NCBI GenBank assembly: GCA_013041745.1
Contig: JABDRN010000028.1
Span: forward strand, 59,028-123,027
Reading direction: 5' to 3'
DNA: 64,000 nucleotides
Source of the DNA: Gammaproteobacteria bacterium
GTDB lineage: Bacteria > Pseudomonadota > Gammaproteobacteria > SZUA-229
Shown: in pieces, positions 6,423 through 63,976 of the stretch
Position numbering within the stretch: position 1 is the stretch's first letter
How the letters are laid out: each line of letters begins with the position of its first letter
Notes under the pieces: model-generated
Seen by the model: only the letters and a program-made list of their open reading frames with translations
Told to the model about the DNA's origin: nothing
Databases searched by the model: none
Position numbers and translations under genes: made by a program

Positions 6423-7856
6423 ATGAACCTGCGATGGCGGCGCACCAAGATTATCGCCACTATTGGGCCAGCATCTGATTCAGTTAAAAATATCACTGCT
6501 CTGATAAAGTCTGGAGTAAATGTATTTCGGTTGAACATGTCCCATGGAGACCATGATTATCATAAAAAGATTTTCAGCAGGATACGTTCGTGTTCGAATA
6601 AAACGGGAACATACGGTGCTATCCTGATGGATCTGTGTGGACCTAAAATTCGAGTAGGTAAGTTCGAAGAAGGCAGTATCCAGCTAAAGAAAAATGACAG
6701 TGTAGTGGTCCGTTGTGGAAGTGGTATCGGGCGTGATGGCATTATCATCTCTCAATACCAGCAGCTTTATAAAGATGTAAAAAAAGGTGAAAGAATATTG
6801 CTCGATGACGGCAATTTGGAATGTAGAGTCGTAAGTGTCAATGGAAAAGATGTCCATTGTAAGGTGGTCTATGGCGGTGAGCTAAAAAATAATAAAGGCT
6901 TAAACTTGCCCGATACGATGATTTCAGCAACTAGTTTTACTGCAAAAGACAAGATGGACGTAAAGCTGGCGATGGAACTGGGCGCAGATTTTGTTGCCTT
7001 GAGTTTCGTGCGTACCGCCAGGGATATCAAGGGATTGATTAAATATATGGCTCGTGTGGATAAAGTAATACCGGTTATCGCAAAAATAGAAAAACCAGAA
7101 GCTGTAGTCAATATCGATGAGATTATAAAATCTTCATATGGAATAATGATCGCGCGTGGAGACCTGGGTATCGAGTTGCCAGCAGAAGAAGTTCCTTTGA
7201 TACAGAAAGTCGTTACCGATAAAGCGAGAGCAAACAACCGTCCTGTTATTGTGGCTACACAGATGATGGAGTCGATGATTACAAACGCAAGACCGACGAG
7301 AGCAGAAGTTGGAGACGTTGCGAATGCCGCAATGACCAGCGTTGACGCAGTGATGCTTTCTGCAGAAACAGCGGCGGGTAAATACCCCGTTAAAGCTGTC
7401 GGCATGATGGATTGTATACTGCGGGAGATAGAGAACCACCAGTGGAGCTCAGGAAGTTTTGGTGATGACTCCGGCGGCAATCTCGATCGACCTTCATCAC
7501 GACGTGCTATCGCGCATGCCGCTAATTCTTTGGCACACGACCTTAAACTACAGGGAGTGCTAGTGCCTACGGATAGTGGTCATACAGCCGCTGTACTGTC
7601 TGCGAGTCGCCCGTCATCACCATTGCTAGGCTTGTCGACGAGTATGGAAACCTGTCAGAAGTTATCACTTCACTGGGGCATCATTCCGTTTCTTATAAAT
7701 AAAGAGGAATCTCAGAACTGGAAGCTTCTCAGTCAGGATATTTGTAATCGATGTAAACTAACCAGGGCCGGTAACAGGGTGCTACTTGTTTCCGGCTTTA
7801 ATGATGATGAGTTACTCAATGAACCAGTCATGAAGATAATCAATGTAATAAATTGA
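6423..7856 (+). CDS. pyk: Pyruvate kinase
   Basis: N-terminus MNLRWRRTKIIATIGPASD...NVFRLNMSHG matches the PykA-type RRTKIV(T/A)T(L/I)GPA motif. The full-length barrel, lid and C-terminal domains are present. The ORF-track start at 6399 adds a poly-K leader and is unlikely. Confidence 0.85.
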   Translation: MNLRWRRTKIIATIGPASDSVKNITALIKSGVNVFRLNMSHGDHDYHKKIFSRIRSCSNKTGTYGAILMDLCGPKIRVGKFEEGSIQLKKNDSVVVRCGSGIGRDGIIISQYQQLYKDVKKGERILLDDGNLECRVVSVNGKDVHCKVVYGGELKNNKGLNLPDTMISATSFTAKDKMDVKLAMELGADFVALSFVRTARDIKGLIKYMARVDKVIPVIAKIEKPEAVVNIDEIIKSSYGIMIARGDLGIELPAEEVPLIQKVVTDKARANNRPVIVATQMMESMITNARPTRAEVGDVANAAMTSVDAVMLSAETAAGKYPVKAVGMMDCILREIENHQWSSGSFGDDSGGNLDRPSSRRAIAHAANSLAHDLKLQGVLVPTDSGHTAAVLSASRPSSPLLGLSTSMETCQKLSLHWGIIPFLINKEESQNWKLLSQDICNRCKLTRAGNRVLLVSGFNDDELLNEPVMKIINVIN

Positions 7857-12175: not shown

Positions 12176-13676
12176 AGCTTAATTTGTAGCCTGCATCATC
12201 TAGATAATCAACCTCTTTACTCAGATCTGCCAGGGTCATATTATGTTCATCGAGCCATCCCTCAGGAAAGCGTAGATGTATTTTTTTATTGCTTACCGTT
12301 AAATCGATTTCAGGTATCTGCTGGTCGGTTCTGCCGCGGTGTAGTAATACGGCTATGCGTAATATTACACACATCTGTTTTCCTGGCTTCACAAATGGTT
12401 TCATCAGCTGCTTGAAAGCATCGACTCTCAGCTTGCTACGGTGTGACAGGACAAGCGCAGCGAGCAATGCCTGCTCCTGGCGAGAAAAGCCTTGTAGGTC
12501 AGCATTTTGTAATATGTAGGCACCGTGCTTGTGGTAATTATTGTGAGATACCTGCAGGCCGATCTCGTGAAGCATAGATGCCCATTTTAGTAACGGCGCA
12601 AGCTGCTCGGTATCAATTGCCCACTGCTTACAGGCGGCATGGCACAGGGTTTGCACGGTATTGGTTATTCGCTGTGCCTGCTCGACATCGACACCCCAGC
12701 GAGACATAGCAGCTTCGACGGTAGCGTCTCTTACGTCCTGATGGGTTATCCGACCGACAAGATCATAGAGCAGACCTTCCCTCATGCTTTGATCTGAGAC
12801 CAGCATATGATCTATATTCAGAGTATTGAAAATTGCCAGTAAAACGGAGAGGCCGCCAGCAATAACGGGTCTGCGACTATCGCTTAGACCAGTGAGTTTT
12901 AGTTTATCGACATGTCCTGCATCGATGACTGTATCACGTAGTTTCAGCAGTGCTTTGTAACTGATGCCTTCAAGGCACCAGCCTTCCTGATGGACGATGT
13001 TTCCGATGGACTTTATAGTACCAGAGCAACCTATCGCCTCTTCCCATCTTCCTGCCTTGAAGTCAGGTGCCTGTGGAAACAGGGTCAGAGCTGCTTCAAG
13101 CTCTGCAGCGTTCATTGCCTGTTTGGTGATATTACCGTTATTAAAAAAACGTCTGCTAGAGCTGACGCAACCGGTATAGAGACTTTCCCTGCGCAACGGT
13201 GTCATGCCATGACCGATAATAAACTCTGTACTGCCACCACCGATATCGACAACCAGTCGCTTGCCCTCCTTGGTTGCCAGGCCATGCGCTACACCGAGAT
13301 AGATCAAGCGCGCTTCTTCACGGCCCTCTATGATTTCGATAGAATGATTTAATATATCTTCAGCCTTTTCAACGAATGAGCGTGAATTTTTTGCTACTCG
13401 CAAAGTGTTTGTGCCGGCAACGCGAATGGCTGAGTGCGGCAGGTCGCGTATGCGTTGAGAAAAAGTTTCGAGGCATTCAAATGCCCTCTTTTGAGCTGGC
13501 TCACTTATATTGCCTTTTTCATCGAGGCCGCCACCGAGGCGAACACTCTCCCGCAAGCGGTCGATTACCGACAATGTGCCGGATTCTTCAAGGCGGGCTA
13601 CAATCATATGGAAGCTGTTTGAGCCGAGGTCGATTGCCGCTACTATCTCCGGCAAGTTTTGTTTTATTGTGGACAT
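12168..13676 (-). CDS. Ppx/GppA family exopolyphosphatase / guanosine pentaphosphate phosphohydrolase
   Basis: N-terminal AAIDLGSNSFHMIVAR... actin-like ATPase motifs of Ppx/GppA; about 500 aa. Confidence 0.85.
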   Translation of the reverse strand: MSTIKQNLPEIVAAIDLGSNSFHMIVARLEESGTLSVIDRLRESVRLGGGLDEKGNISEPAQKRAFECLETFSQRIRDLPHSAIRVAGTNTLRVAKNSRSFVEKAEDILNHSIEIIEGREEARLIYLGVAHGLATKEGKRLVVDIGGGSTEFIIGHGMTPLRRESLYTGCVSSSRRFFNNGNITKQAMNAAELEAALTLFPQAPDFKAGRWEEAIGCSGTIKSIGNIVHQEGWCLEGISYKALLKLRDTVIDAGHVDKLKLTGLSDSRRPVIAGGLSVLLAIFNTLNIDHMLVSDQSMREGLLYDLVGRITHQDVRDATVEAAMSRWGVDVEQAQRITNTVQTLCHAACKQWAIDTEQLAPLLKWASMLHEIGLQVSHNNYHKHGAYILQNADLQGFSRQEQALLAALVLSHRSKLRVDAFKQLMKPFVKPGKQMCVILRIAVLLHRGRTDQQIPEIDLTVSNKKIHLRFPEGWLDEHNMTLADLSKEVDYLDDAGYKLSFE

Positions 13677-24132: not shown

Positions 24133-24591
24133 ATGAGCGAAGAAAATCAGCAGTTTGCGATTCAAAAAATATATCTAAAAGACGTTTCATTCGAGTCGCC
24201 CAATTCCCCGCAGTCATTCACCAGTGACAAACAGCCGCAGATAAATGTACAGATCAACAGCTCCAACCAGAGTGTTGCCGAAGATACATATGAAGTCGTT
24301 CTGGAGATAACAGTAACAGCAAAACACGATGACAAAACGGCCTTTTTAGCCGAGGTCAAACAGGCGGGCATCTTTACCATTACTGGTTTTCCACAGGAAA
24401 ACCTGGGTGGCATGATCGGTGCTTTCTGCCCCGAGACTTTATTCCCGTATGCCAGGGAATCGGTTTCTGAGCTGGTTTCAAAAGGCGGTTTCCCGCAGTT
24501 GCTGCTGGCACCGGTTAACTTCAATGCGCTGTATGCGCAGCAGGTGCAACAACAGGCTGCAGAGCCGACACAGGAAGATACCGCACATTAA
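24133..24591 (+). CDS. secB: Protein-export chaperone SecB
   Basis: MSEENQQFAIQKIYLKDVSFESPNSP... colinear with E. coli SecB. Confidence 0.9.
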   Translation: MSEENQQFAIQKIYLKDVSFESPNSPQSFTSDKQPQINVQINSSNQSVAEDTYEVVLEITVTAKHDDKTAFLAEVKQAGIFTITGFPQENLGGMIGAFCPETLFPYARESVSELVSKGGFPQLLLAPVNFNALYAQQVQQQAAEPTQEDTAH

Positions 24592-44237: not shown

Positions 44238-44275
44238 TTTAAAATATTATTATATTTAATAAAGGTATAATATTA

Positions 44276-44301
44276 AAAAGAGCCCAACGGGCTCTTTTTT
44301 T
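44276..44301 (+). terminator. Intrinsic terminator after the pilin gene
   Basis: GAGCCC-aac-GGGCTC followed by T7. Confidence 0.7.
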
Positions 44302-52488: not shown

Positions 52489-52863
52489 GAGAATAAACAG
52501 GTGATATTGCCTGATAACATAACGGTACTGCAAAGTTTCCACGTCATCTCGGTTTTGTCCACTGGTAATGGCGGGCTATGTTTCATAAGGCAGTATAAGG
52601 TTGCGTTAGATCAGGATAAATTCTAACAAGGTATCATATCTCAAGCCTTGATCGTTTTGTGATAATTATAAGGTGCCTTCCATGGCGTGTGAGGAGTCTC
52701 GTCCTTGTATGATTCAAACTCTGTAATGTGATTCAGTTGAGCACCAAAACTACTGGTAGCAGGCGCTTCACCTAAATGAGTTTACAGGGTGTTCAGACAT
52801 AGTCATGTGCAACATGCATGCCAGCGATAAAACCGGTATCTGCAGTCGATTACAAGGTGAAGT

Positions 52864-52973: not shown

Positions 52974-52989
52974 TGGCATGACTATTGCT
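52974..52989 (+). promoter_or_regulatory. Sigma54 promoter TGGCATGactaTTGCT driving the ANTAR regulator
   Basis: Near-consensus -24 GG and -12 TTGC with correct spacing. It overlaps the ORF-track ATG at 52978, which argues for a downstream start. Confidence 0.6.
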
Positions 52990-53025: not shown

Positions 53026-53598
53026 ATGGACCTGATCCTTGTTGCCGACAACCTGGATAGCGCTCAGCCATTATTGAGAGTTGCATCAAAGTCTGGCTAT
53101 CGAATAGTGAAGTTGATCGAAGTGGATGCTGATGCCAGCAGGTATGTGGAATCATTGCGCCCTGACGCCCTGATAGTGCTCAGTGATGAAATAGACCGGC
53201 TAGTGTTACGGCAGATGAAAGCTATCACCGCAAAACAACCCTTACCGATGGTTGTTTTTACCCGTGATTCTAATCCCGATTCTATCGATGCCGCTGTAAA
53301 AGCCGGTGCTAGTACTTATGTAGTTGACTGTAATGATCCTGAGAGGCTGGGCTCTCTGCTGGGTGTGGCCAGGTCGAGGTTCGATGAGCAGCAACGCTTA
53401 CAGAAAGAGCTGCTGCAGACAAAGATCGCACTGTCCGACCGGAAGAATGTAGAAAGAGCAAAAGGTATCATCATGAAAACCAAGAGCGTAAGTGAAGACC
53501 AGGCTTATAACGCGATGCGAAAACTGGCGATGAACCATAATAAACGCATAGGTGAAATAGCTGAGCAGATAATCTCAGCGTCTGAAGTCCTGGTCTAA
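53026..53598 (+). CDS. NasT/AmiR-like response regulator with C-terminal ANTAR RNA-binding antitermination domain
   Basis: Receiver-like N-terminus (MDLILVADN...) and ANTAR (LSDRKNVERAKGIIMKTKSVSEDQAYNAMRKLAMNHNKRIGEIAEQII). Confidence 0.8.
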   Translation: MDLILVADNLDSAQPLLRVASKSGYRIVKLIEVDADASRYVESLRPDALIVLSDEIDRLVLRQMKAITAKQPLPMVVFTRDSNPDSIDAAVKAGASTYVVDCNDPERLGSLLGVARSRFDEQQRLQKELLQTKIALSDRKNVERAKGIIMKTKSVSEDQAYNAMRKLAMNHNKRIGEIAEQIISASEVLV

Positions 53599-53697: not shown

Positions 53698-54669
53698 ATG
53701 GGATGGCTAGATAAATCAATCAGTAAACAGCGTAGTTTTATAGAAGGTTTATTACTTGATCCTTTGAGCAAGCTTGCCGATATATGTGTTGACAGCTGGA
53801 GTGACAGGAAAAAGCTGGATCAGAGTCTGAAAGCCTATCTGCAGGCGAAAACAGATCACCGCTGTTCTTTATTGTATGCGATAGACATAAAGGGCCTGCA
53901 GTACAGCAGTAATATCTCAAAAGATATGGTCGATGAAGCCATCATCGGTCAGGACCTGTCGCACAGGCCTTATCTAAAAAGCATCGATAATGGCAGTGAA
54001 ACACAGTTGTTGCTTAGTGATGTCTACATCGATAAGCAGACCCGCAAGCCCTGTATAACAGTGCTACATGAGGTCAGGTCGAATCATGAGGTCATCGGCT
54101 ATATCGCTGCTGATTTCGGACTGAAAGATCTGCCGTTAAAAAACGTTAATGAGTTACAGTCATATGAATGGCGCCAGATAAAAGGCGATCCTTCCATACG
54201 TGGTACGATGTTTCAGCAGACGCGGGTCCGCAGTTCGATGGATCAGCATATCGATGAAGTGCTCGATGTGGTCGAGTCCCTGATGACAGAGCAGGGGGTG
54301 TTTCACGTAAAGCTGCATTTCTCCAGTTCACGAGCGACACTATGGTCATACAGTGATCCTTATCGATATCGTCTGCATGTATTGGACGAGATAATTAATC
54401 CTAAAGTTTGTCTCGTCTATGAAAAAGTGCCTTACCCTGAGCAGGCCCTGGTCACGGCCGGTATGGTGCACAACGTGTTAAAAGCTTTCAAGCTTTTGAG
54501 GGATGCTGATGAAACTATCTACCTGCGGGCCGCGTCATTGAATATAATGAACGGGCTGGTCGGACTCAACTTCTCCTGCGACGGCTCTCATTATATGCCA
54601 GCCAATGAATTTCTCGAAAAAGACCTGAGGTTCTGGTTTGGCGAAGAAACTATCTGTGTCAATGCCTAG
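53698..54669 (+). CDS. Cytoplasmic Cache/PAS-like sensor protein; putative ligand-sensing partner of the ANTAR regulator
   Basis: No TM. Cache-like motif RPYLKSI...LLLSDVYIDKQTRKPCITVLHEV...EVIGYIAADFGL. Sits where nasS would be but is unrelated to NrtA-type binding proteins. Confidence 0.5.
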   Translation: MGWLDKSISKQRSFIEGLLLDPLSKLADICVDSWSDRKKLDQSLKAYLQAKTDHRCSLLYAIDIKGLQYSSNISKDMVDEAIIGQDLSHRPYLKSIDNGSETQLLLSDVYIDKQTRKPCITVLHEVRSNHEVIGYIAADFGLKDLPLKNVNELQSYEWRQIKGDPSIRGTMFQQTRVRSSMDQHIDEVLDVVESLMTEQGVFHVKLHFSSSRATLWSYSDPYRYRLHVLDEIINPKVCLVYEKVPYPEQALVTAGMVHNVLKAFKLLRDADETIYLRAASLNIMNGLVGLNFSCDGSHYMPANEFLEKDLRFWFGEETICVNA

Positions 54670-54779: not shown

Positions 54780-56117
54780 TTAGTCGTTGTCTTTCCAGTG
54801 GCCCTTGCCTTTACGTGTTATCGCCCACGTGGCATCGCCATCATCAGCTGCTGAGTGCTGTACGTTGACATACAGGGTTTTGTCATCAGTCGGGCTGAAG
54901 TAGATGCCGGTACCTTCTGCACCCGGGTCGGTCAGAGAAGCGAATAAGTCAACGTCTTTAGATGCTCCATACTCGTTAGTTTTTGTAGAAGCGAACCAGA
55001 TGTCAGATGGTTTGTTATCTTCGATCATGATCAGGTCACCGTTTGGTGCTTCTGCCAGGTTGTCGACGCTGTCGAAACCAGTCTGGTGGCCTTCCTGACC
55101 GGGCTTGCCTATTTCAACAGGAGCGTTAACGCCAGCTTTAACGAAGTTAGTGACTTGCATTGACTGAAGATCAACAGCGATCACACGGCCTTCGTAGTAC
55201 TCTTTGCCGTATTCGTCACGAGGGCCTTCAGTGATAGCAACGTACAGATTGCCGTCGATGATTTCCAGGTCTTCAGGACGCTGGTAGCTTGCGCCGCCAG
55301 CCAGAGTGCCGGCGCGACGAGCATCAGTAGCGTCGATAGGGCCCAGCCATTCGCCCTGTCCAGTATTATCGGCACGATGCTCATTGTTAAGAGGGGTTTT
55401 AATGCCCAGAACGTACAGATCACCAGAAGACAGGTCACCGTAATTGTGAGGAACGAACTTGTAAATGCCGCCACCACATGGAATGCCCAGGTCACAGCCT
55501 GAAGTACGGCCGCGGTGCTCATCTACTACATAAACGTTACCATCAATGTCGAAATCGATGCCTTCGTGCGCCAGGCGGCCAACAGCAGGACGATCATGAA
55601 TTACTGCAGCAGTAGTCAGGTCAGCATCCAGTTCGATTTCGAAAAAACGCCCGCCCGTTGTTTCTTCAGCGAATACAACTGTGCCCCATGGGGACCAGCG
55701 AATACCGTCCAGGGCATTATATGAAGGGTCCTGAGCCAGGATGGAAGTTGCACCGGTTTCCAGGTCAACAACAGTAACTGTGCCGCCTTCTGGCTGGTTG
55801 GCCGGGAAGCGCAGTTCATGAGTGCGATACATAAAACGACCAGCCATCGGGCCAGTTTCATTGACAACGTTCATGTCATGCCAGTCGTCGCGGCCACCGT
55901 CATAGATGTTCAGGTCTGCTTCATCAGAAACCACAGTCTGTTTGAAGCCTTTAGGCAGTTTCCATGGCGCAGTCGGATCCCAGTTAGCTGCGTTAGCAGA
56001 TTCTTCGAGTGGTTTGAAGCTGAAGCTGTTGTTTTTTTTATCATCATCTGCCTGTACTGTGCCAGAGATGGTTAACGCTGCAGTGATAGCAGAAGCCAGT
56101 AAGTGATTTTTGTTCAT
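54780..56117 (-). CDS. Secreted DUF839/PhoX-family beta-propeller (phosphatase-like) protein
   Basis: Signal peptide MNKNHLLASAITAALTISGTVQA after SD AAGGAAAAA; DUF839-like motifs (SPWGTVVFAEE, NGDLIMIEDN). Confidence 0.5.
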   Translation of the reverse strand: MNKNHLLASAITAALTISGTVQADDDKKNNSFSFKPLEESANAANWDPTAPWKLPKGFKQTVVSDEADLNIYDGGRDDWHDMNVVNETGPMAGRFMYRTHELRFPANQPEGGTVTVVDLETGATSILAQDPSYNALDGIRWSPWGTVVFAEETTGGRFFEIELDADLTTAAVIHDRPAVGRLAHEGIDFDIDGNVYVVDEHRGRTSGCDLGIPCGGGIYKFVPHNYGDLSSGDLYVLGIKTPLNNEHRADNTGQGEWLGPIDATDARRAGTLAGGASYQRPEDLEIIDGNLYVAITEGPRDEYGKEYYEGRVIAVDLQSMQVTNFVKAGVNAPVEIGKPGQEGHQTGFDSVDNLAEAPNGDLIMIEDNKPSDIWFASTKTNEYGASKDVDLFASLTDPGAEGTGIYFSPTDDKTLYVNVQHSAADDGDATWAITRKGKGHWKDND

Positions 56118-56440
56118 TAAATTTTTCCTTAAGCAAGGTTGAAAATATTTATAACCAGGAGTCAATGTGGTTATGTCGTTCTCAGTCATTCCTGAGAGCG
56201 GATATATTCATCGAGTTGTGTGAAAGATTTATTAAACAAAATTGACGGTTTTATGAATATATATGTCGTATGACAGATATGCAGTTATTGTTACAACATT
56301 ATTACTAAAAATTTTTGTAACCGATGCAGACGAACTGGTTTGGTGCGGATGGAATCTTTATGGGCTTCTATGGTGCAATAGTTGCCTGGAATGAGTAAAA
56401 GTTATTATTAAATCTTACGTATATTAACGACTTGAAAAAC

Positions 56441-56456
56441 TGGCACGTTCTATGCT
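56441..56456 (+). promoter_or_regulatory. Sigma54-like promoter TGGCACGttctaTGCT of the flavo-heme operon
   Basis: Consensus -24 TGGCACG; the -12 is TGCT (one mismatch) with correct spacing. About 20 nt upstream of ANTAR hairpin P1. Confidence 0.45.
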
Positions 56457-56474
56457 TATGCATTAATAAGTGAG

Positions 56475-56546
56475 CTGGTCAATGGCGGCCAGTCTGAATA
56501 AATACATTTTTTAGATAATTATCTAAGACACAAAGCAATGGTGCTT
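56475..56546 (+). ncRNA. ANTAR-target dual hexaloop hairpins (P1 56475-56492 CUGGUC[AAUGGC]GGCCAG; P2 56533-56546 AAGC[AAUGGU]GCUU) in the operon leader
   Basis: Both loops are hexaloops with A at position 1 and G at position 4, the ANTAR-target signature. P2 overlaps the 5' arm of the terminator. Confidence 0.55.
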
Positions 56547-56586
56547 GTATGCGGATTAGTTTCGTATGCAAGCGCCATTTTTTTTG
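56538..56586 (+). terminator. Leader intrinsic terminator (attenuator) upstream of the flavoprotein gene
   Basis: A 16-bp stem (AUGGUGCUUGUAUGCG / CGUAUGCAAGCGCCAU with 3 G-U pairs), 9-nt loop, then T8. Located 25 nt before the start codon. Confidence 0.7.
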
Positions 56587-56610
56587 TGCCGTTTAAAAGT
56601 CGATAGTTTT

Positions 56611-58629
56611 ATGAGCGCAATGCTAGAAAAGATCGTACCTGTAGCACAGGTCTCATCAGATAACGCAGTTTGTATCGCTGCCGAGACGGCCGCAATCGTC
56701 ATCGTTGGCAGTGGTCCTGTCGGTATGCAGTTTGCCAATGAACTCATGCTACGTAATACCGATGCACCCGTTATCGTTTATGGCAGCGAGCCTGTGCAGC
56801 CATACAACAGGGTAAGGCTCTCAGACTATCTTGCCGGTGAGGTATACCGTGATGCGCTTTCGATCGAGGAGCCTGTTTCAGGTAATGCAAATATCGAGTT
56901 TCGTTATAACTGTGCCGTCGAGTGGATCGATAAGAAAGAAAGGTTTATAACCGATGCCAGTGGCAGGGTGCAGCGATATTCAAAGCTGGTGCTGGTCACA
57001 GGGTCAACACCATTTATACCGATGTTTGGCAACCGCCATTACGAAGGTGTCTATACCTTTCGTACACTGGGCCAGGCGGATGAACTGCTCTCCAGAAAAA
57101 TCCGTACCAGGCATACTGTTGTCATAGGCGGAGGTCTGCTGGGCATTGAAACTGCGCGTGCCATGCAGAAGTATCATACAGATATAACCATCGTCGAACA
57201 TAACAGATGGTTGATGATGCAGCAGCTCGATGAGAAGGGTTCATCATATCTTGAGGACTACATCAAAAAGAACGGGATAAATATAGTACTCGATGACAGT
57301 GTCGTCAGTGTTACGGGAAATGGCCGTGTCGAGGGTGTAACGCTACGTAGCGGTAAAACAATAGAATGCGATACATTAATCGTAGCCGCCGGAGTTCGAC
57401 CGAATATTTCGCTGGCCAGGGATGCCGGACTGGTCTACCACAAAGGCATCCGTATCGATAATCATTTGCAGACCTCAGAGAAGGATATCTTTGCTATCGG
57501 TGAGTGTGCAGAACATGACGAAAATGTTTACGGGCTGGTAAAACCAGGTTTTGATCAGGCGGCTGTTCTTGCGGAGCGTTTGACAGGCGGTGATGCTCAG
57601 TATGTCGGGTCGATAAGTACGACAAAGTTGAAGGTCATGTCACAGGCAGTTTTCAGTGCTGGACGCAATGGTATAGATGAAGAGCCTGGTGCGTCCGTTA
57701 GTGAATATGTTTTCAGCGATAAGGATGCTGGTATATATCGAAAGATTCGCATCTTCGGGAATCGTATCATCGGTGTGATCGCCGTCGGTGAATGGCATGA
57801 GAGTGCTCTTATCAATGAAGCCATACAGGAAAGACGCAAGTTCTGGTTCTGGCACCTGGTCCGTTTCAAAGCCACTGGAAATATCTGGGGTGATGCAGAT
57901 GATATCGATGTATCGACATGGCCAGCGTCTGCGACCGTATGTAACTGTACCGGGGTGACACGAGGCAGATTAAGCAGCGTAGTTAACAGTGGATGTGAGG
58001 ATGTCGCCTGCCTTACCAGGATGACGCGCGCTGGAAGTGTCTGTGGCTCATGCAAACCGTTACTGGCGGAGATGTTAGGTGAGTCAGCTGATATCGAACC
58101 GGTACGGTCATGGCGGGGGCTGCTGGCTTTATCTGCACTGACTGTTGTTATCACAGTGATGTTCGCATTGTTCTGGCCGATACCGTTTGCTGATAGTGTG
58201 CAGTACGAAATACGCTGGGATGAATTATGGCGAGACTCACTGTTCAAGCAGATCAGTGGTTTCAGTATGCTGGGGCTGATCGTAATCGGACTTTTCATCT
58301 CGCTGCGAAAGCGCAGTTCTAAAGTCAGCTTCGGAGATTATGACCTGTGGCGTATATCTCACATCGTGCTCGGTATCGTCGCCCTGGCAGTGCTCATCGC
58401 GCATACCGGTTTTCGTTTAGGCAATGAACTGAATATGCTGCTGATGATTAATTTTTTATTGCTGGCTGCGGCCGGTGCAAGCGCCAGTACTGTCGTGGCA
58501 ACCGAGCATCGCATGGTGCCGGCAGTCGCAAAGAAGAAGCGCAAGATGTGGAACAAGGTGCACCTGTTTCTGTTCTGGTCTCTGCCTGTACTCCTGGGTT
58601 TTCATGTCTTGAAGACATATTACTACTGA
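56611..58629 (+). CDS. NirB-N-terminal-like NAD(P)H flavoprotein (FAD/NAD plus BFD [2Fe-2S]) fused to a C-terminal His-rich 5-TM domain
   Basis: GSGPVG and GGGLLG Rossmann motifs; GECAEHDENVYGLVKPGFDQAAV (compare NirB GECASWNNRVFGLVAPGYKMAQV); BFD-like CNCTGVTRGRL...CGSCKP; then five hydrophobic helices with His residues. No siroheme or 4Fe-4S domain. Start at the internal Met after the terminator. Confidence 0.75.
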   Translation: MSAMLEKIVPVAQVSSDNAVCIAAETAAIVIVGSGPVGMQFANELMLRNTDAPVIVYGSEPVQPYNRVRLSDYLAGEVYRDALSIEEPVSGNANIEFRYNCAVEWIDKKERFITDASGRVQRYSKLVLVTGSTPFIPMFGNRHYEGVYTFRTLGQADELLSRKIRTRHTVVIGGGLLGIETARAMQKYHTDITIVEHNRWLMMQQLDEKGSSYLEDYIKKNGINIVLDDSVVSVTGNGRVEGVTLRSGKTIECDTLIVAAGVRPNISLARDAGLVYHKGIRIDNHLQTSEKDIFAIGECAEHDENVYGLVKPGFDQAAVLAERLTGGDAQYVGSISTTKLKVMSQAVFSAGRNGIDEEPGASVSEYVFSDKDAGIYRKIRIFGNRIIGVIAVGEWHESALINEAIQERRKFWFWHLVRFKATGNIWGDADDIDVSTWPASATVCNCTGVTRGRLSSVVNSGCEDVACLTRMTRAGSVCGSCKPLLAEMLGESADIEPVRSWRGLLALSALTVVITVMFALFWPIPFADSVQYEIRWDELWRDSLFKQISGFSMLGLIVIGLFISLRKRSSKVSFGDYDLWRISHIVLGIVALAVLIAHTGFRLGNELNMLLMINFLLLAAAGASASTVVATEHRMVPAVAKKKRKMWNKVHLFLFWSLPVLLGFHVLKTYYY

Positions 58630-58650: not shown

Positions 58651-60072
58651 ATGAATGTGAGTGAGACGGCACTGAAGTGGATCTTATGGATAGTACTAAC
58701 AACGATAATTGTTATATGGCTAGGTTATTCGATGCTTTCTGAGTCAGCAGATAAAACGATATTTATGCCCGGGCCATTAAGTCCGGGGCATCATCAGCTG
58801 GCAGATGCCTGTGGTGCTTGCCATGCTGATGCTTTTGGCGGCGGAGAAGTGCTGCAGCAGTCCTGTGTTGACTGCCATGGCGAAGACAGGGTGAAGCCTT
58901 TTGATTCTCACCCAGCAAAAAAATTTAAGGATCCACGTAATGTTGAGCTCTTAGAAAATATCGATGCCCTGATGTGTACCAGCTGCCATACAGAACATCG
59001 TCCAGAGATCACGGCAAAAGATGGCGTGACACAGCCGATCGATTTCTGTGTTCACTGTCACCAGGATGTTGCTGAGGAGCGACCGTCACATGAAGGTATG
59101 GCCTTTGATACCTGTAAAGATTCTGGCTGTCACAATTTTCATAATAATCGTGCTCTGTATACCGACTTTCTGATTAAGCATCTCGATGAGCCGCCGACAT
59201 TGAAACAAGTCGTGCTGCCCGCAAAAGAGTATCTCGATGTTATCGATGAAGTCGTCGAGTACCCCCGAGAAAAATATCCACTGACTCAACTCGAAGAAAA
59301 AGATATCGATGCCGTGGAACGGCTGACTGTCAGTCCAGAGATAAAAAAAGACTGGCTCGAAACATCACATGCTAAATCGGGTGTCAATTGTACAGCATGC
59401 CATATAACGGAGGATGGTAGCGGCAGTGAGAAATGGACTGACCATCCTGAGCACCAGGCCTGCTCGAGTTGCCATAGTGTGGAAGTATCGCGTTTTACAG
59501 AGGGTAAGCATGGCATGCGTCTTAAACAGGGACTGTCACCGATGACGCCAGAGAATGCCATGCTGCCGATGAAAGAAGCTGCGCAACATGAAGATCTTAC
59601 CTGCAGCAGCTGCCATGGCGCTCATCGATTCGATGTGGTGTCGGCCGCTGTCGAATCATGCCTTGGCTGTCACGATGATGACCATAGCCTCGCTTACGAG
59701 CAGTCGCCACATTATCAGCTGTGGCAGAAAGAGATAAGCGGTGAAGCTGAAGCTGGCACCGGCGTTTCCTGCGCCAGTTGCCACATGCCACGTATCAGTT
59801 ATGACGTCAGTGAATGGTCAAGTCGCATAATCGTCGACCACAACCAGAGTGCAAACCTGTCGCCCAACAGCAAGATGATCCGTTCCAGTTGCCTGCACTG
59901 TCATGGCCTGGAGTTTACCTTGGAAGCATTGATCGACGTGAATATGATCAACAATAACTTCACTGGAAAGCCCGTTATTAATAGCGAAACGATGGACCTT
60001 GCCGACAGCGAAAACCAGAGACGCCTGAAGGCGGCGGCTGAAGATGAAGATGCTGGCATGTTCGGTTTCTAG
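58651..60072 (+). CDS. Membrane-anchored multiheme cytochrome c (10-11 heme sites); NapC/NrfH-like tetraheme N-module plus an additional multiheme domain
   Basis: N-terminal TM, then CGACH, CVDCH, CTSCH, CVHCH within about 130 aa, then CTACH, CSSCH, CSSCH, CLGCH, CASCH, CLHCH and one CX4CH (CKDSGCH). Confidence 0.8.
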   Translation: MNVSETALKWILWIVLTTIIVIWLGYSMLSESADKTIFMPGPLSPGHHQLADACGACHADAFGGGEVLQQSCVDCHGEDRVKPFDSHPAKKFKDPRNVELLENIDALMCTSCHTEHRPEITAKDGVTQPIDFCVHCHQDVAEERPSHEGMAFDTCKDSGCHNFHNNRALYTDFLIKHLDEPPTLKQVVLPAKEYLDVIDEVVEYPREKYPLTQLEEKDIDAVERLTVSPEIKKDWLETSHAKSGVNCTACHITEDGSGSEKWTDHPEHQACSSCHSVEVSRFTEGKHGMRLKQGLSPMTPENAMLPMKEAAQHEDLTCSSCHGAHRFDVVSAAVESCLGCHDDDHSLAYEQSPHYQLWQKEISGEAEAGTGVSCASCHMPRISYDVSEWSSRIIVDHNQSANLSPNSKMIRSSCLHCHGLEFTLEALIDVNMINNNFTGKPVINSETMDLADSENQRRLKAAAEDEDAGMFGF

Positions 60073-60134
60073 AGAGTAGCAGAAAACTAACCGTTGATTT
60101 TTCAACATAAACAAACTTGACCTTAGAGGTGATT

Positions 60135-60743
60135 ATGAAAAACATGAAACACAATTTGAAACGAAAGCTGATGATTGGCACTGCAGTATCTGCTATCGCA
60201 GCTGCCACGGCTGTCAGTGCCGAGGTCTCTGATGCAAAAGTATCTGTAAAAGCGATGGCAGATGCATTACACCTGGTGATGGATTCCGATCGTTCGGTAT
60301 ATACCAAGAAGATCGTGAACAGGCTGGTGAAAAAAGAGAAAGTGATCAAAGCGTCCGAACACTTCGAAGATGAAAAAGCACTGGTGTTGCCAGCACAGAT
60401 GTTCAGGTTCGGTTCGGAGATGGCGGCAAAGCGAGCAGAGAAACTGGATGATGTTAATTTCAGTTATACCCTGCAGTCGCTATGGCCTATCAATAAACAG
60501 AATGCGCCGAAGACCAATGCAGAAAAAGCAGGTTTGAAATATGTCGCGGAGAACAAGGGTAAAAATTATTACACGACCGAGAAGCTTGGCGGGGTAAATT
60601 ATTTTACCGCAGTTTACGCAGATACGGGTGTCGCACCGGTATGTGTTTCATGTCATAACAAGCACCCGGACACACCGAAAAAAGATTTTAAGATCGGTGA
60701 CGTAATGGGTGGCGTAGTTATCCGTATACCGGTTGAAGGCTAA
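60135..60743 (+). CDS. Periplasmic monoheme c-type protein, DUF3365/Tll0287-like (PAS-like heme c)
   Basis: Signal peptide; single C-terminal CVSCHNKH. SD AGAGGTGATT directly before the ATG. Confidence 0.5.
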   Translation: MKNMKHNLKRKLMIGTAVSAIAAATAVSAEVSDAKVSVKAMADALHLVMDSDRSVYTKKIVNRLVKKEKVIKASEHFEDEKALVLPAQMFRFGSEMAAKRAEKLDDVNFSYTLQSLWPINKQNAPKTNAEKAGLKYVAENKGKNYYTTEKLGGVNYFTAVYADTGVAPVCVSCHNKHPDTPKKDFKIGDVMGGVVIRIPVEG

Positions 60744-60754
60744 TAGATAGCACT

Positions 60755-61156
60755 ATGTTGACCGGACTAGGTAACATTATATCTCTTGCATTCTCTGTTG
60801 TAGTCTTTACCACGGTCATGGTATCAGAGGCGCTGGCGGATAATGCGGATTATATTCAGTCAGGTGATGAAGCACTGCAACAGGGCCGAGGCCTGTGGCT
60901 GGAGAACTGCGAGGGATGTCATGGTTATGGTATCGCAGACGCACCGATACCTATGCAAGCTGGCGACTGGAAGCACCGCGTGATAAAGGAAAGAGAGGTT
61001 CTATATCGTCATGCTATAGAAGGTTTTATCGGTGAGGACTATAGCATGATGCCGGCACGCGGCGGTAATGAAGAATTAAACGACGACCAGGTTAAAGCGG
61101 CGGTGGATTATATGCTGTTCCTGGCAAATTTTTATATCAAACAACAAGACAATTAA
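60755..61156 (+). CDS. Class I cytochrome c (c5-like)
   Basis: Signal peptide, CEGCHGYG, and a distal Met region (DYSMMPARGG). Confidence 0.75.
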   Translation: MLTGLGNIISLAFSVVVFTTVMVSEALADNADYIQSGDEALQQGRGLWLENCEGCHGYGIADAPIPMQAGDWKHRVIKEREVLYRHAIEGFIGEDYSMMPARGGNEELNDDQVKAAVDYMLFLANFYIKQQDN

Positions 61157-61166
61157 CGAGGTGATT

Positions 61167-61592
61167 ATGATAACTCCACAACAGAAAGAACTGGTACAAA
61201 AAACATGGGTGATGGTCGTGCCTATCGCTGATACGGCCGCCGAGCTTTTTTATGGCCGATTATTCGAGCTGGAGCCCGAATACAAGAAGATGTTTAAAAA
61301 CGATATGACAGAGCAGGGTAAAAAGCTGATGAAGACGATCAATATCGCTGTAGAAGCGCTTGATGATGTCGAACCACTGGTCCCGGTGCTAAAAAAGATG
61401 GGTGCTGACCATGCAGGTTATGGCGTAAAAGAGCGTGACTACAACGTCGTCGGTGCAGCCCTGTTATGGACGCTGGAAAAAGGTCTGGGTGACGCCTTTA
61501 CCGATGAGGTCAAAAATGCCTGGGGTGCAGTCTATGAATTACTGGCAAGCGTGATGAAGTCTGGTGCAGCAGAAGCAGAACAGGCAGCATAA
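61167..61592 (+). CDS. Single-domain bacterial globin (Vitreoscilla-Hb / flavohemoglobin N-domain-like)
   Basis: Aligns to VHb: B10 Tyr (FYGRLF), E7 Gln, proximal His (GADHAGYGV), and ...NVVGAALLWTLEKGLGDAFTDEVKNAWGAVYELLASVM. Same GAGGTGATTATG start context as the 60135 gene. Confidence 0.8.
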   Translation: MITPQQKELVQKTWVMVVPIADTAAELFYGRLFELEPEYKKMFKNDMTEQGKKLMKTINIAVEALDDVEPLVPVLKKMGADHAGYGVKERDYNVVGAALLWTLEKGLGDAFTDEVKNAWGAVYELLASVMKSGAAEAEQAA

Positions 61593-61645: not shown

Positions 61646-61680
61646 AGGGCCAGTGGACATCAGTTCACTGGCCCATTTCT
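61646..61680 (+). terminator. Putative terminator ending the flavo-heme-globin operon
   Basis: GGGCCAGTGGAC-atca-GTTCACTGGCCC followed by ATTTCTGTAT (weak T-run). Confidence 0.45.
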
Positions 61681-63769: not shown

Positions 63770-63976
63770 TCATCCATTGCCTTCGTCGTCTGATACCATC
63801 TTGGCGAAGCCGAGTAAAATTCCGATACCGACAGAAAAAAAGCCGACGGCGAACAATATATAAGCCAGCGATGAACGTGTATCAAAATAAAAAATAAAGC
63901 ACGCTATTATCATCGATAATAAGCCTGCCATGATGGTTATATAACTTTTATTGAACATCGGATTTCCAAAAAACAC
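63770..63976 (-). CDS. Small hypothetical membrane protein (2 TM)
   Basis: ORF only; hydrophobic. Confidence 0.3.
   Translation of the reverse strand: MFFGNPMFNKSYITIMAGLLSMIIACFIFYFDTRSSLAYILFAVGFFSVGIGILLGFAKMVSDDEGNG

Follow-up and report, generated by a model that had tools for sequence, protein, structure and literature searches.

In a 64,000-nucleotide (nt) stretch of gammaproteobacterial DNA (contig JABDRN010000028.1 of assembly GCA_013041745.1; the whole of this stretch is called the window here, and positions are numbered within it), the leader that lies ahead of a five-gene operon is very probably, judging from its sequence, an ANTAR antitermination switch of the NasT/NasR type, which would place the operon under two levels of control, one exerted through Ntr/sigma54 and the other through antitermination. 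The RNA switch adds nothing new in principle, and the grammar of the nasF, NalA and eut leaders is followed closely. The elements of the leader, all on the + strand, are the following.

56441-56456, +: sigma54-type promoter, TGGCAC-GTTCT-ATGCT (-24 GG, -12 GC), identified as a sequence motif
56474-56493, +: P1 hairpin, GCUGGUC/AAUGGC/GGCCAGU, with a 7-base-pair (bp) stem that includes a terminal G-U pair, identified from sequence and fold
56509-56528, +: 8-bp hairpin within the linker between P1 and P2, identified from the fold
56533-56546, +: P2 hairpin, AAGC/AAUGGU/GCUU, with a 4-bp stem, the predicted antiterminator element, identified from sequence
56537-56585, +: intrinsic terminator with a 19-bp stem (56537-56555 with 56561-56579), a 5-nt loop and a run of eight T (T8), identified by a terminator scan and in the minimum free energy fold

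The determinants of the ANTAR RNA motif are two hexaloop hairpins with A at loop position 1 (A1), G at loop position 4 (G4) and a C:G pair that closes the loop (PMC8934654, PMC7496416). These determinants are found in the window, together with a second hairpin whose formation excludes that of the terminator. The P1 hexaloop AAUGGC occupies 56481-56486 and the P2 hexaloop AAUGGU occupies 56537-56542; both carry A1 and G4 and both are closed by a C:G pair, and the hairpins have folding energies of -9.6 kcal/mol for P1 and -2.7 kcal/mol for P2 alone. The initial annotation of this DNA, made from the letters of the sequence, had pointed out A1 and G4 in the two loops, the repetition of CAAUGG in the two hairpins (CAATGG occurs at 56480 and 56536), the P2 hairpin in exactly the form found, and a sigma54 promoter, which differs by one base from the consensus TGGCAC-N5-TTGCW and from which transcription of the leader would start near 56467. 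Its T8, placed 25 nt before the start codon, also agrees with the sequence, in which the run extends over 56578-56585, its first two T pair with A56537 and A56538, and the ATG of the first operon gene stands at 56611. The P1 hairpin and its loop are likewise present, with a stem that has 7 bp including the G-U pair instead of the 6 bp described. Two further measurements require correction: the terminator stem, given as 16 bp, has 19 bp, or 17 bp without the two A-U pairs to the T-run, and the overlap between P2 and the 5' arm of the terminator, given as 9 nt, is 10 nt (56537-56546), over which the two pairings are mutually exclusive. P1 and P2 are separated by a linker of 39 nt (56494-56532), a distance that the hairpin at 56509-56528 may shorten.

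The folding energies bear on which of the two states is the default. The leader has a minimum free energy of -50 kcal/mol (z = -5.2), which none of 200 shuffled sequences equalled, and the terminator alone accounts for -28.1 kcal/mol. In the comparison of terminator and antiterminator folds that the initial annotation had proposed as a check, the terminator form has an energy of -49.7 kcal/mol and the form in which P2 is enforced has one of -31.5 kcal/mol. The terminator form is thus 18 kcal/mol more stable, so the default state is expected to be termination, with the operon off. When P2 is held closed, a 9-bp hairpin is left over which falls 8 nt short of the U tract. Counting both strands, the 64-kb window contains a single pair of C-ANNGNN-G hairpins with T6 behind it, and none of 200 dinucleotide shuffles contains one.

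Conservation and covariation of the leader

Relatives were collected by scanning one genome per species for the decahaem cytochrome encoded by the second gene of the operon. This yielded 47 loci (designated by L numbers), which belong mostly to metagenome-assembled genomes (MAGs) of sulfur-oxidising Gammaproteobacteria (Thiogranum, Sedimenticolaceae, Chromatiales, Halochromatium) and in a few cases to Burkholderiaceae, and throughout which the five operon genes are syntenic. The hairpins and terminators of the relatives were located by a fold-based search. About 30 of the 47 loci have the leader layout of the window ahead of the operon and on the same strand: a hexaloop hairpin, a second hexaloop hairpin that overlaps the 5' base of the terminator, and a T-run just before the start codon, the distance from the end of the T-run to the start codon being 2-29 nt in the loci whose start is confidently placed. 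The TGGCA...TGC of the promoter is invariant in an alignment of nine close leaders. A sigma54 motif is found upstream of P1 in 17 of 26 leaders, and in eight of the nine leaders that do not have this motif the ANTAR gene ends just before P1.

Two of the loci counted here, L019 (6481-7949) and L007 (leader 6535-6608), have the leader about 1.5 kb upstream of the reductase gene. The gap in L019 holds the gene for an AlgE-like (Alginate_exp) outer-membrane porin of 444 amino acids, and the presence of a porin gene behind this leader fits periplasmic handling of the substrate.

Since hand-picked P1 hairpins would bias the measurement of covariation, MAFFT alignments that were unfitted to structure were folded with RNAalifold. 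P1 and the terminator were predicted from the nine close leaders, with compensatory changes in 12 of 25 pairs, and again from 21 more distant leaders, with compensatory changes in 15 of 18 pairs; the latter set excludes the window and its two closest relatives, L046 and L030. A covariance model built from these 21 leaders, and hence from orthologues without the window, gives one significant match in the window, at 56472-56582 (27.3 bits, E = 0.0011), which is reached despite a 35-nt insertion in the linker, and it detects 43 sites across the 47 loci. The model also matched weakly at 44252-44301 and 63889-63926; these sites, which are simple hairpins or resemble terminators and lack the hexaloops, were rejected.

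Across 43 aligned leaders P1 and P2 are preserved as structures. Taken together their positions are paired in 95.1% of cells, compared to 27-44% when the 3' partners are slid, and they contain 109 double-change cells, a count matched by none of 500 shuffles. For P1, 94.9% of cells are paired and double changes occur in five of the six pairs; for P2 the corresponding values are 95.3% and three of the four pairs. P1 and the terminator together are 94.5% paired with 200 double-change cells, and the terminator has double changes in 10 of its 12 modelled pairs. P2 lies outside the structure of the model to which this alignment was fitted, and its covariation is therefore not imposed by the fit. The alignment columns of the P2 3' strand (90-93) covary both with columns 80-83, their partners in P2, and with columns 146-149, their partners in the terminator, as would be expected of a two-state switch. 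Of the 43 leaders, 39 have A at loop position 1 in P1 and likewise 39 in P2, loop position 4 is G in 42 (P1) and 43 (P2), and the closing pair is C:G in 35 (P1) and 39 (P2) and U:G in the remainder. The conservation of the paired hexaloops in orthologous leaders, whose failure the initial annotation had named as grounds for abandoning its reading, thus holds, with covariation in P1, P2 and the terminator.

The lengths of the linker are bimodal in the 43 leaders, being 2-9 nt in 25 of them and 24-53 nt in the other 18. A hairpin is present in all six linkers of 36 nt or more, with modest z values from -0.3 to -2.2, of which five are -1.6 or lower.

Leaders of the same type are also found in front of a second set of genes. 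In 16 loci a second leader precedes nrtA (NMT1_2), a permease gene, an ABC ATPase gene and then a full-length nirB; the leaders listed for this position are L001 16467-16572, L002 16580-16683, L004 6605-6705, L006 12899-12979, L015 13218-13324, L018 4182-4307, L022 15200-15312, L023 5322-5410 (- strand), L024 14109-14195, L025 5316-5402 (- strand), L028 15993-16077, L031 10967-11050, L038 13144-13245 and L044 14461-14559. The listed loci carry two ANTAR-type switches, except for L018 and L028, in which the nrt-nirB leader alone was detected. The position of this second leader before nrtABC-nirB identifies the leader type as one of nitrate assimilation and the regulator as NasT-like, and it ties the cytochrome/globin operon to nitrate assimilation.

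Regulator, candidate partner and proposed mechanism

A gene for a regulator of the expected class lies about 3 kb upstream of the leader, and the intervening region contains the following features.

52974-52989, +: sigma54-type promoter, TGGCATGACTATTGCT, 52 nt upstream of the ATG at 53026
53026-53598, +: REC-ANTAR regulator, NasT-like (Pfam ANTAR, 4.8e-18)
53698-54669, +: cytoplasmic Cache/PDC-like protein of 323 amino acids (weak Pfam dCache_1 match), 100 nt downstream of the ANTAR gene
54780-56189, -: PhoX-like gene, between the Cache-like gene and the leader
56341-56346 and 56371-56376, +: two TGGTGC repeats, 30 nt apart, about 100 and 70 nt upstream of the leader promoter

The REC-ANTAR protein matches EutV (6wsh, 1.6e-14, the best match), Rv1626 and NasR in the PDB, and the residues aligned with the RNA-contacting Tyr and Met of EutV (PMC8934654) are kept in it. 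The listed open reading frame (ORF) of its gene starts at 52978. The ATG of that ORF is overlapped by the sigma54 motif at 52974-52989, which makes the ATG at 53026 the probable true start. Of 17 related loci examined, 15 have a matching motif ahead of the ANTAR gene, its distance from the start being 28-67 nt, and 50-67 nt in 14 of the 15 (L001, L002, L004, L005, L012, L015, L017, L022, L024, L030, L031, L038, L044, L045 and L046), so that the regulator itself appears to be nitrogen-controlled. The pattern TGGCAY-N6-TGCW has five matches in the window where 0.76 are expected. Three further matches lie at 52808-52823 (-), 12640-12655 (+) and 24408-24423 (+), and the first of these faces minus-strand MobA-like, DsbD-like and cation-efflux genes.

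The regulator gene and the leader occur together. ANTAR orthologues adjoin the leader in 24 loci, the leader is present in all 25 loci that have an ANTAR gene, and an ANTAR gene is found in the flank of none of the 11 leaderless loci (Fisher p = 3e-6, uncorrected for phylogeny). In these 11 (L010, L011, L013, L014, L027, L029, L032, L033, L034, L040 and L047) the operon is present, no leader was detected and the retrieved flank contains no ANTAR gene; the operon is evidently under different control there. Some of the 11 have a sigma54-like motif alone. L013 belongs to a cultured relative, Halochromatium glycolicum DSM 11080. The ANTAR sequence features, the covariation and the presence of the REC-ANTAR gene all support the antitermination switch that the initial annotation had proposed.

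The Cache-like protein has thousands of homologues, and all the named ones listed are "hypothetical". Its sequence gave no match in a search of the PDB. Its AlphaFold2 model has a mean predicted local distance difference test (pLDDT) score of 65, rising above 80 in the N-terminal domain, and a Foldseek search with the model returned the sensor (PDC/dCache) domains of KinD, DctB and Tlp3. The gene stands beside the ANTAR gene in the window and in L001, L002, L030, L046 and L038, and a NasS-like paralogue of NrtA stands there instead in L007, L019, L018, L022, L028 and L036. It may be hypothesized on this basis that the Cache-like protein is a ligand-sensing partner of the ANTAR regulator at the place where NasS is expected. 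The leader directly follows the Cache-like gene in L001, L002, L030 and L046, and the PhoX-like gene of the window therefore looks like a local insertion. None of the ANTAR, Cache-like, Tll0287-like and cytochrome c proteins could be named through NCBIfam.

The proposed mechanism begins at the sigma54 promoter, from which transcription would start at about 56467, probably with the help of an NtrC-type activator under nitrogen limitation. The TGGTGC repeats are conceivable as candidate half-sites for such an activator, by their sequence; L046, L030 and L002 share such a pair, with a spacing of 30-31 nt, and L001, L038 and L003 have one repeat each. By default P1 would form first in the nascent RNA, followed by the 19-bp terminator and its U8 tract, and transcription would stop near 56585 to leave a leader RNA of about 120 nt. 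The active REC-ANTAR protein, whose gene would be transcribed from its own sigma54 promoter, is expected to bind the AAUGGC hexaloop of P1 and the AAUGGU hexaloop of P2. The weak 4-bp P2, once held closed, would sequester 56537-56546 at the 5' base of the terminator, and the polymerase would read into the operon. Nitrate or nitrite is the most likely activating signal, given that leaders of this type stand before nrtABC-nirB in relatives, and the signal would probably be relayed by a partner that holds the regulator inactive, Cache-like here and NasS-like in other lineages.

Alternative explanations

If two small hairpins had arisen by chance beside an ordinary terminator, the resemblance to an ANTAR target would carry no meaning, and single C-ANNGNN-G hairpins are indeed common, 35 being observed in the window compared to 25 expected. 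This explanation is very improbable: the full arrangement appeared in none of the 200 shuffles, and conservation and covariation over 43 leaders contradict it. The terminator also has no plus-strand gene upstream to end, since the upstream gene (54780-56189) lies on the minus strand. It is more plausible, while still unlikely, that the terminator is a real attenuator controlled by some other RNA-binding protein, a metabolite-binding fold or a leader peptide, with the hexaloops conserved for another reason. ANTAR binding to this leader is a prediction from sequence, and the linker greatly exceeds that of the eut paradigm in length (PMC8934654), both of which leave some room for such an attenuator. 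Against it stand the conserved positions themselves, A1, G4 and the C:G closing pair, which coincide exactly with the determinants of ANTAR recognition, and the way in which the presence of the leader tracks that of the ANTAR gene across loci. No riboswitch or other cis-regulatory family of Rfam matches the leader, and the leader-peptide variant is disfavoured by the fact that the sole short ORF seen at the leader 5' end is ATG-CAT-TAA.

A third possibility, of similarly low probability, is that the main product is a free sigma54-dependent small RNA of about 120 nt (56467-56585) which acts in trans, for example as an EutX-like sponge for the ANTAR protein. The strong terminator of the default fold would lead one to expect a stable short RNA, terminated nas leaders have been recorded as small RNAs (NalA, PMC10783516), and EutX RNA sequesters the ANTAR protein EutV (PMC8934654). 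However, the leader stands directly upstream of the conserved operon and on the same strand in 30 loci, its T-run ends only 2-29 nt before confidently placed start codons, and in at least eight loci the leader comes after the ANTAR gene and lacks a separate promoter. Such a role in trans is in any case compatible with a switch in cis.

Several observations weigh against the preferred interpretation of the leader as an ANTAR antitermination switch of the NasT/NasR type. The P2 stem consists of 4 bp only, and in the EutV system the addition of 20 nt to the linker abolished antitermination (PMC8934654), compared to the 39 nt of linker in the window. The window leader is the lowest-scoring match accepted from the covariance model, mainly as a result of this linker. 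The alignment of 43 leaders was fitted to the model of P1 and terminator, and the shuffle controls, the covariation counts and the Fisher test take no account of shared ancestry. Genes of nitrate assimilation (nrt, nirB) are found neither in the window nor in about 5 kb beyond its end in the same organism, so that nitrate or nitrite is assigned as the signal by analogy with related loci. The interpretation is built on sequence elements, covariation and linkage, and binding, termination and promoter use are predictions.

Rfam also gave no confirmation. The initial annotation had proposed a scan with an Rfam ANTAR model; in searches of the leader region, the whole window and seven related loci, at gathering thresholds and at E <= 10, no family reached its threshold on the window site or on the orthologues. 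The matches below threshold were to narK, P11 and Burkholderia ncS035, and a match of WsnRNA46/mir-122 to the terminator was rejected as spurious. The narK RNA (RF03032) scores 15 bits at the window site and 13 bits on L009 (7834-7994), compared to a gathering threshold of 43.2, and P11 (RF00625), which we take to be the NalA region, scores 13.2 bits on an orthologous leader, compared to 70. The consensus of RF03032 consists of GGCAC-N..-UUGCU, then GGcagCC-AACGGC-GGcugCC, then CGAC-AAAGAC-GUCG, that is, of a sigma54 promoter followed by two hexaloop hairpins, and the narK RNA is therefore probably itself a leader of the ANTAR/NasT type. No paper was found that links "narK RNA" with ANTAR.

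Related systems and the regulated operon

The nas leaders combine an NtrC/RpoN promoter with antitermination by NasST or NasR (PMC10783516). The nasF leader of Klebsiella oxytoca, controlled by NasR, and the NalA (nirBD) leader of Pseudomonas, controlled by NasS-NasT, have an RpoN/NtrC-type promoter, for which the window leader has a conserved sigma54-type motif, and share with the window leader the two A1/G4 hexaloop hairpins and the overlap of the second hairpin with an intrinsic terminator; in them a nitrate- or nitrite-responsive ANTAR protein is required for read-through (PMC10783516, PMC7496416). The window differs from these systems in that a nitrate transporter, a nitrate reductase and a sirohaem nitrite reductase are all missing from its operon, its linker has 39 nt and a hairpin of its own, and a Cache-like protein is encoded beside the regulator in place of NasS (NrtA-like) or a NIT-domain sensor. 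By its sequence the leader would appear to work like the nas leaders and to belong to the same type of regulon, without being the leader of a nas operon. The eut leaders of Enterococcus faecalis and their regulator EutV have the same RNA grammar, the mechanism that is predicted for the window and the same REC-ANTAR architecture. EutV needs a short linker (PMC8934654). It is activated through phosphorylation by EutW, whereas in the window no kinase gene adjoins the ANTAR gene and the receiver domain appears, in a weak pairwise alignment, to be without the conserved Lys-Pro of beta5. In view of its 39-nt linker the leader is not filed as eut-type. The narK RNA of Rfam resembles the window leader in that its sigma54-like promoter precedes two hexaloop hairpins which are also of this type; P1 alone is annotated as its structure, and by the Rfam gathering score the window leader is not a member.

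The five genes that the leader precedes, and the terminator that follows them, are listed below.

56611-58629, +: membrane NirB-like reductase, 672 amino acids, first gene of the operon
58651-60072, +: membrane-anchored decahaem cytochrome c with 10 CXXCH, identified by domain and motif searches
60117-60743, +: Tll0287-like haem c protein, third gene
60755-61156, +: monohaem cytochrome c, fourth gene
61161-61592, +: single-domain globin of the Hmp N-terminal type, fifth gene
61647-61674, +: operon terminator, identified by a terminator scan

Residues 29-492 of the NirB-like protein match the part of NirB that contains the FAD/NAD(P)H and BFD 2Fe-2S domains, and domain searches found no sirohaem/NIR_SIR domain in the protein. 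Its C-terminus is a fused membrane domain with several hydrophobic helices (58108-58626, +), and the C-terminal 173 amino acids give sub-threshold matches alone, to b-haem membrane families (DUF4079, DUF4405, Ferric_reduct and cytochrome b561). Public gene calls place the start at the ATG at 56566 (687 amino acids; L048 and L049), a position within the terminator's 3' arm; N-terminal conservation with five orthologues favours the ATG at 56611. All ten haem motifs of the decahaem cytochrome are CXXCH, with no CXXCK. Its C-terminal part bears a weak likeness to octahaem and NrfA nitrite reductases, and residues 341-446 resemble the C-terminal part of the octahaem enzymes.

The initial annotation had called the operon an unusual one for such a switch. 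Its content is unusual, but its context is ordinary, since in relatives it lies within nitrate-assimilation clusters. The nearest precedent is narK-bjgb-flp-nasC, an operon of Bradyrhizobium, which depends on NasS-NasT and whose globin and FAD/NAD(P)H flavoprotein detoxify nitric oxide (NO) that arises from nitrate assimilation (PMC4724949); in the window, too, a single-domain Hmp-type globin and a flavoprotein stand behind a probable NasT-type leader. Unlike that operon, the one in the window has its flavoprotein fused to a membrane domain, contains neither nasC nor narK, and also encodes three c-type haem proteins, one of them decahaem, whose N-terminal segments are membrane or signal-like ones. 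In a literature search on Tll0287, decahaem and multihaem proteins, globin and NirB in connection with nitrate assimilation or sulfur oxidisers, no description of the operon was found.

A broader proposal, which is tentative and may well prove wrong, is that in these Gammaproteobacteria, most of which oxidise sulfur, a so far undescribed system of electron transfer has joined the regulon of the NasT type, with a free-standing cytoplasmic dCache-like protein replacing NasS in the lineage of the window. Electrons might pass, according to the same tentative proposal, from cytoplasmic NAD(P)H to FAD, to the 2Fe-2S centre, to the membrane b-type domain and on to the periplasmic decahaem cytochrome, with the Tll0287-like haem protein, the cytochrome c and the cytoplasmic globin as possible further members, and the substrate of the system might be a nitrogen oxide (nitrite, NO or hydroxylamine) that is dealt with outside the cytoplasm. 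If the proposal is true, the dCache-like protein would represent a new class of partner-sensor for ANTAR regulators.

The leader is of value mainly as a functional label, since it would place the operon under control by nitrogen limitation and, probably, by nitrate or nitrite. The operon so labelled, of which the papers searched apparently contain no description, occurs in at least 47 species-level genomes, mostly of sulfur-oxidising Gammaproteobacteria and including MAGs from marine sediment, and the leader would narrow the roles of its NirB-like reductase, decahaem cytochrome and globin to the handling of nitrogen oxides. ANTAR systems of the window type seem, unlike EutV, to tolerate long linkers that contain hairpins, and an RNA family that goes undetected by Rfam release 15 could be founded on the 43 aligned leaders.

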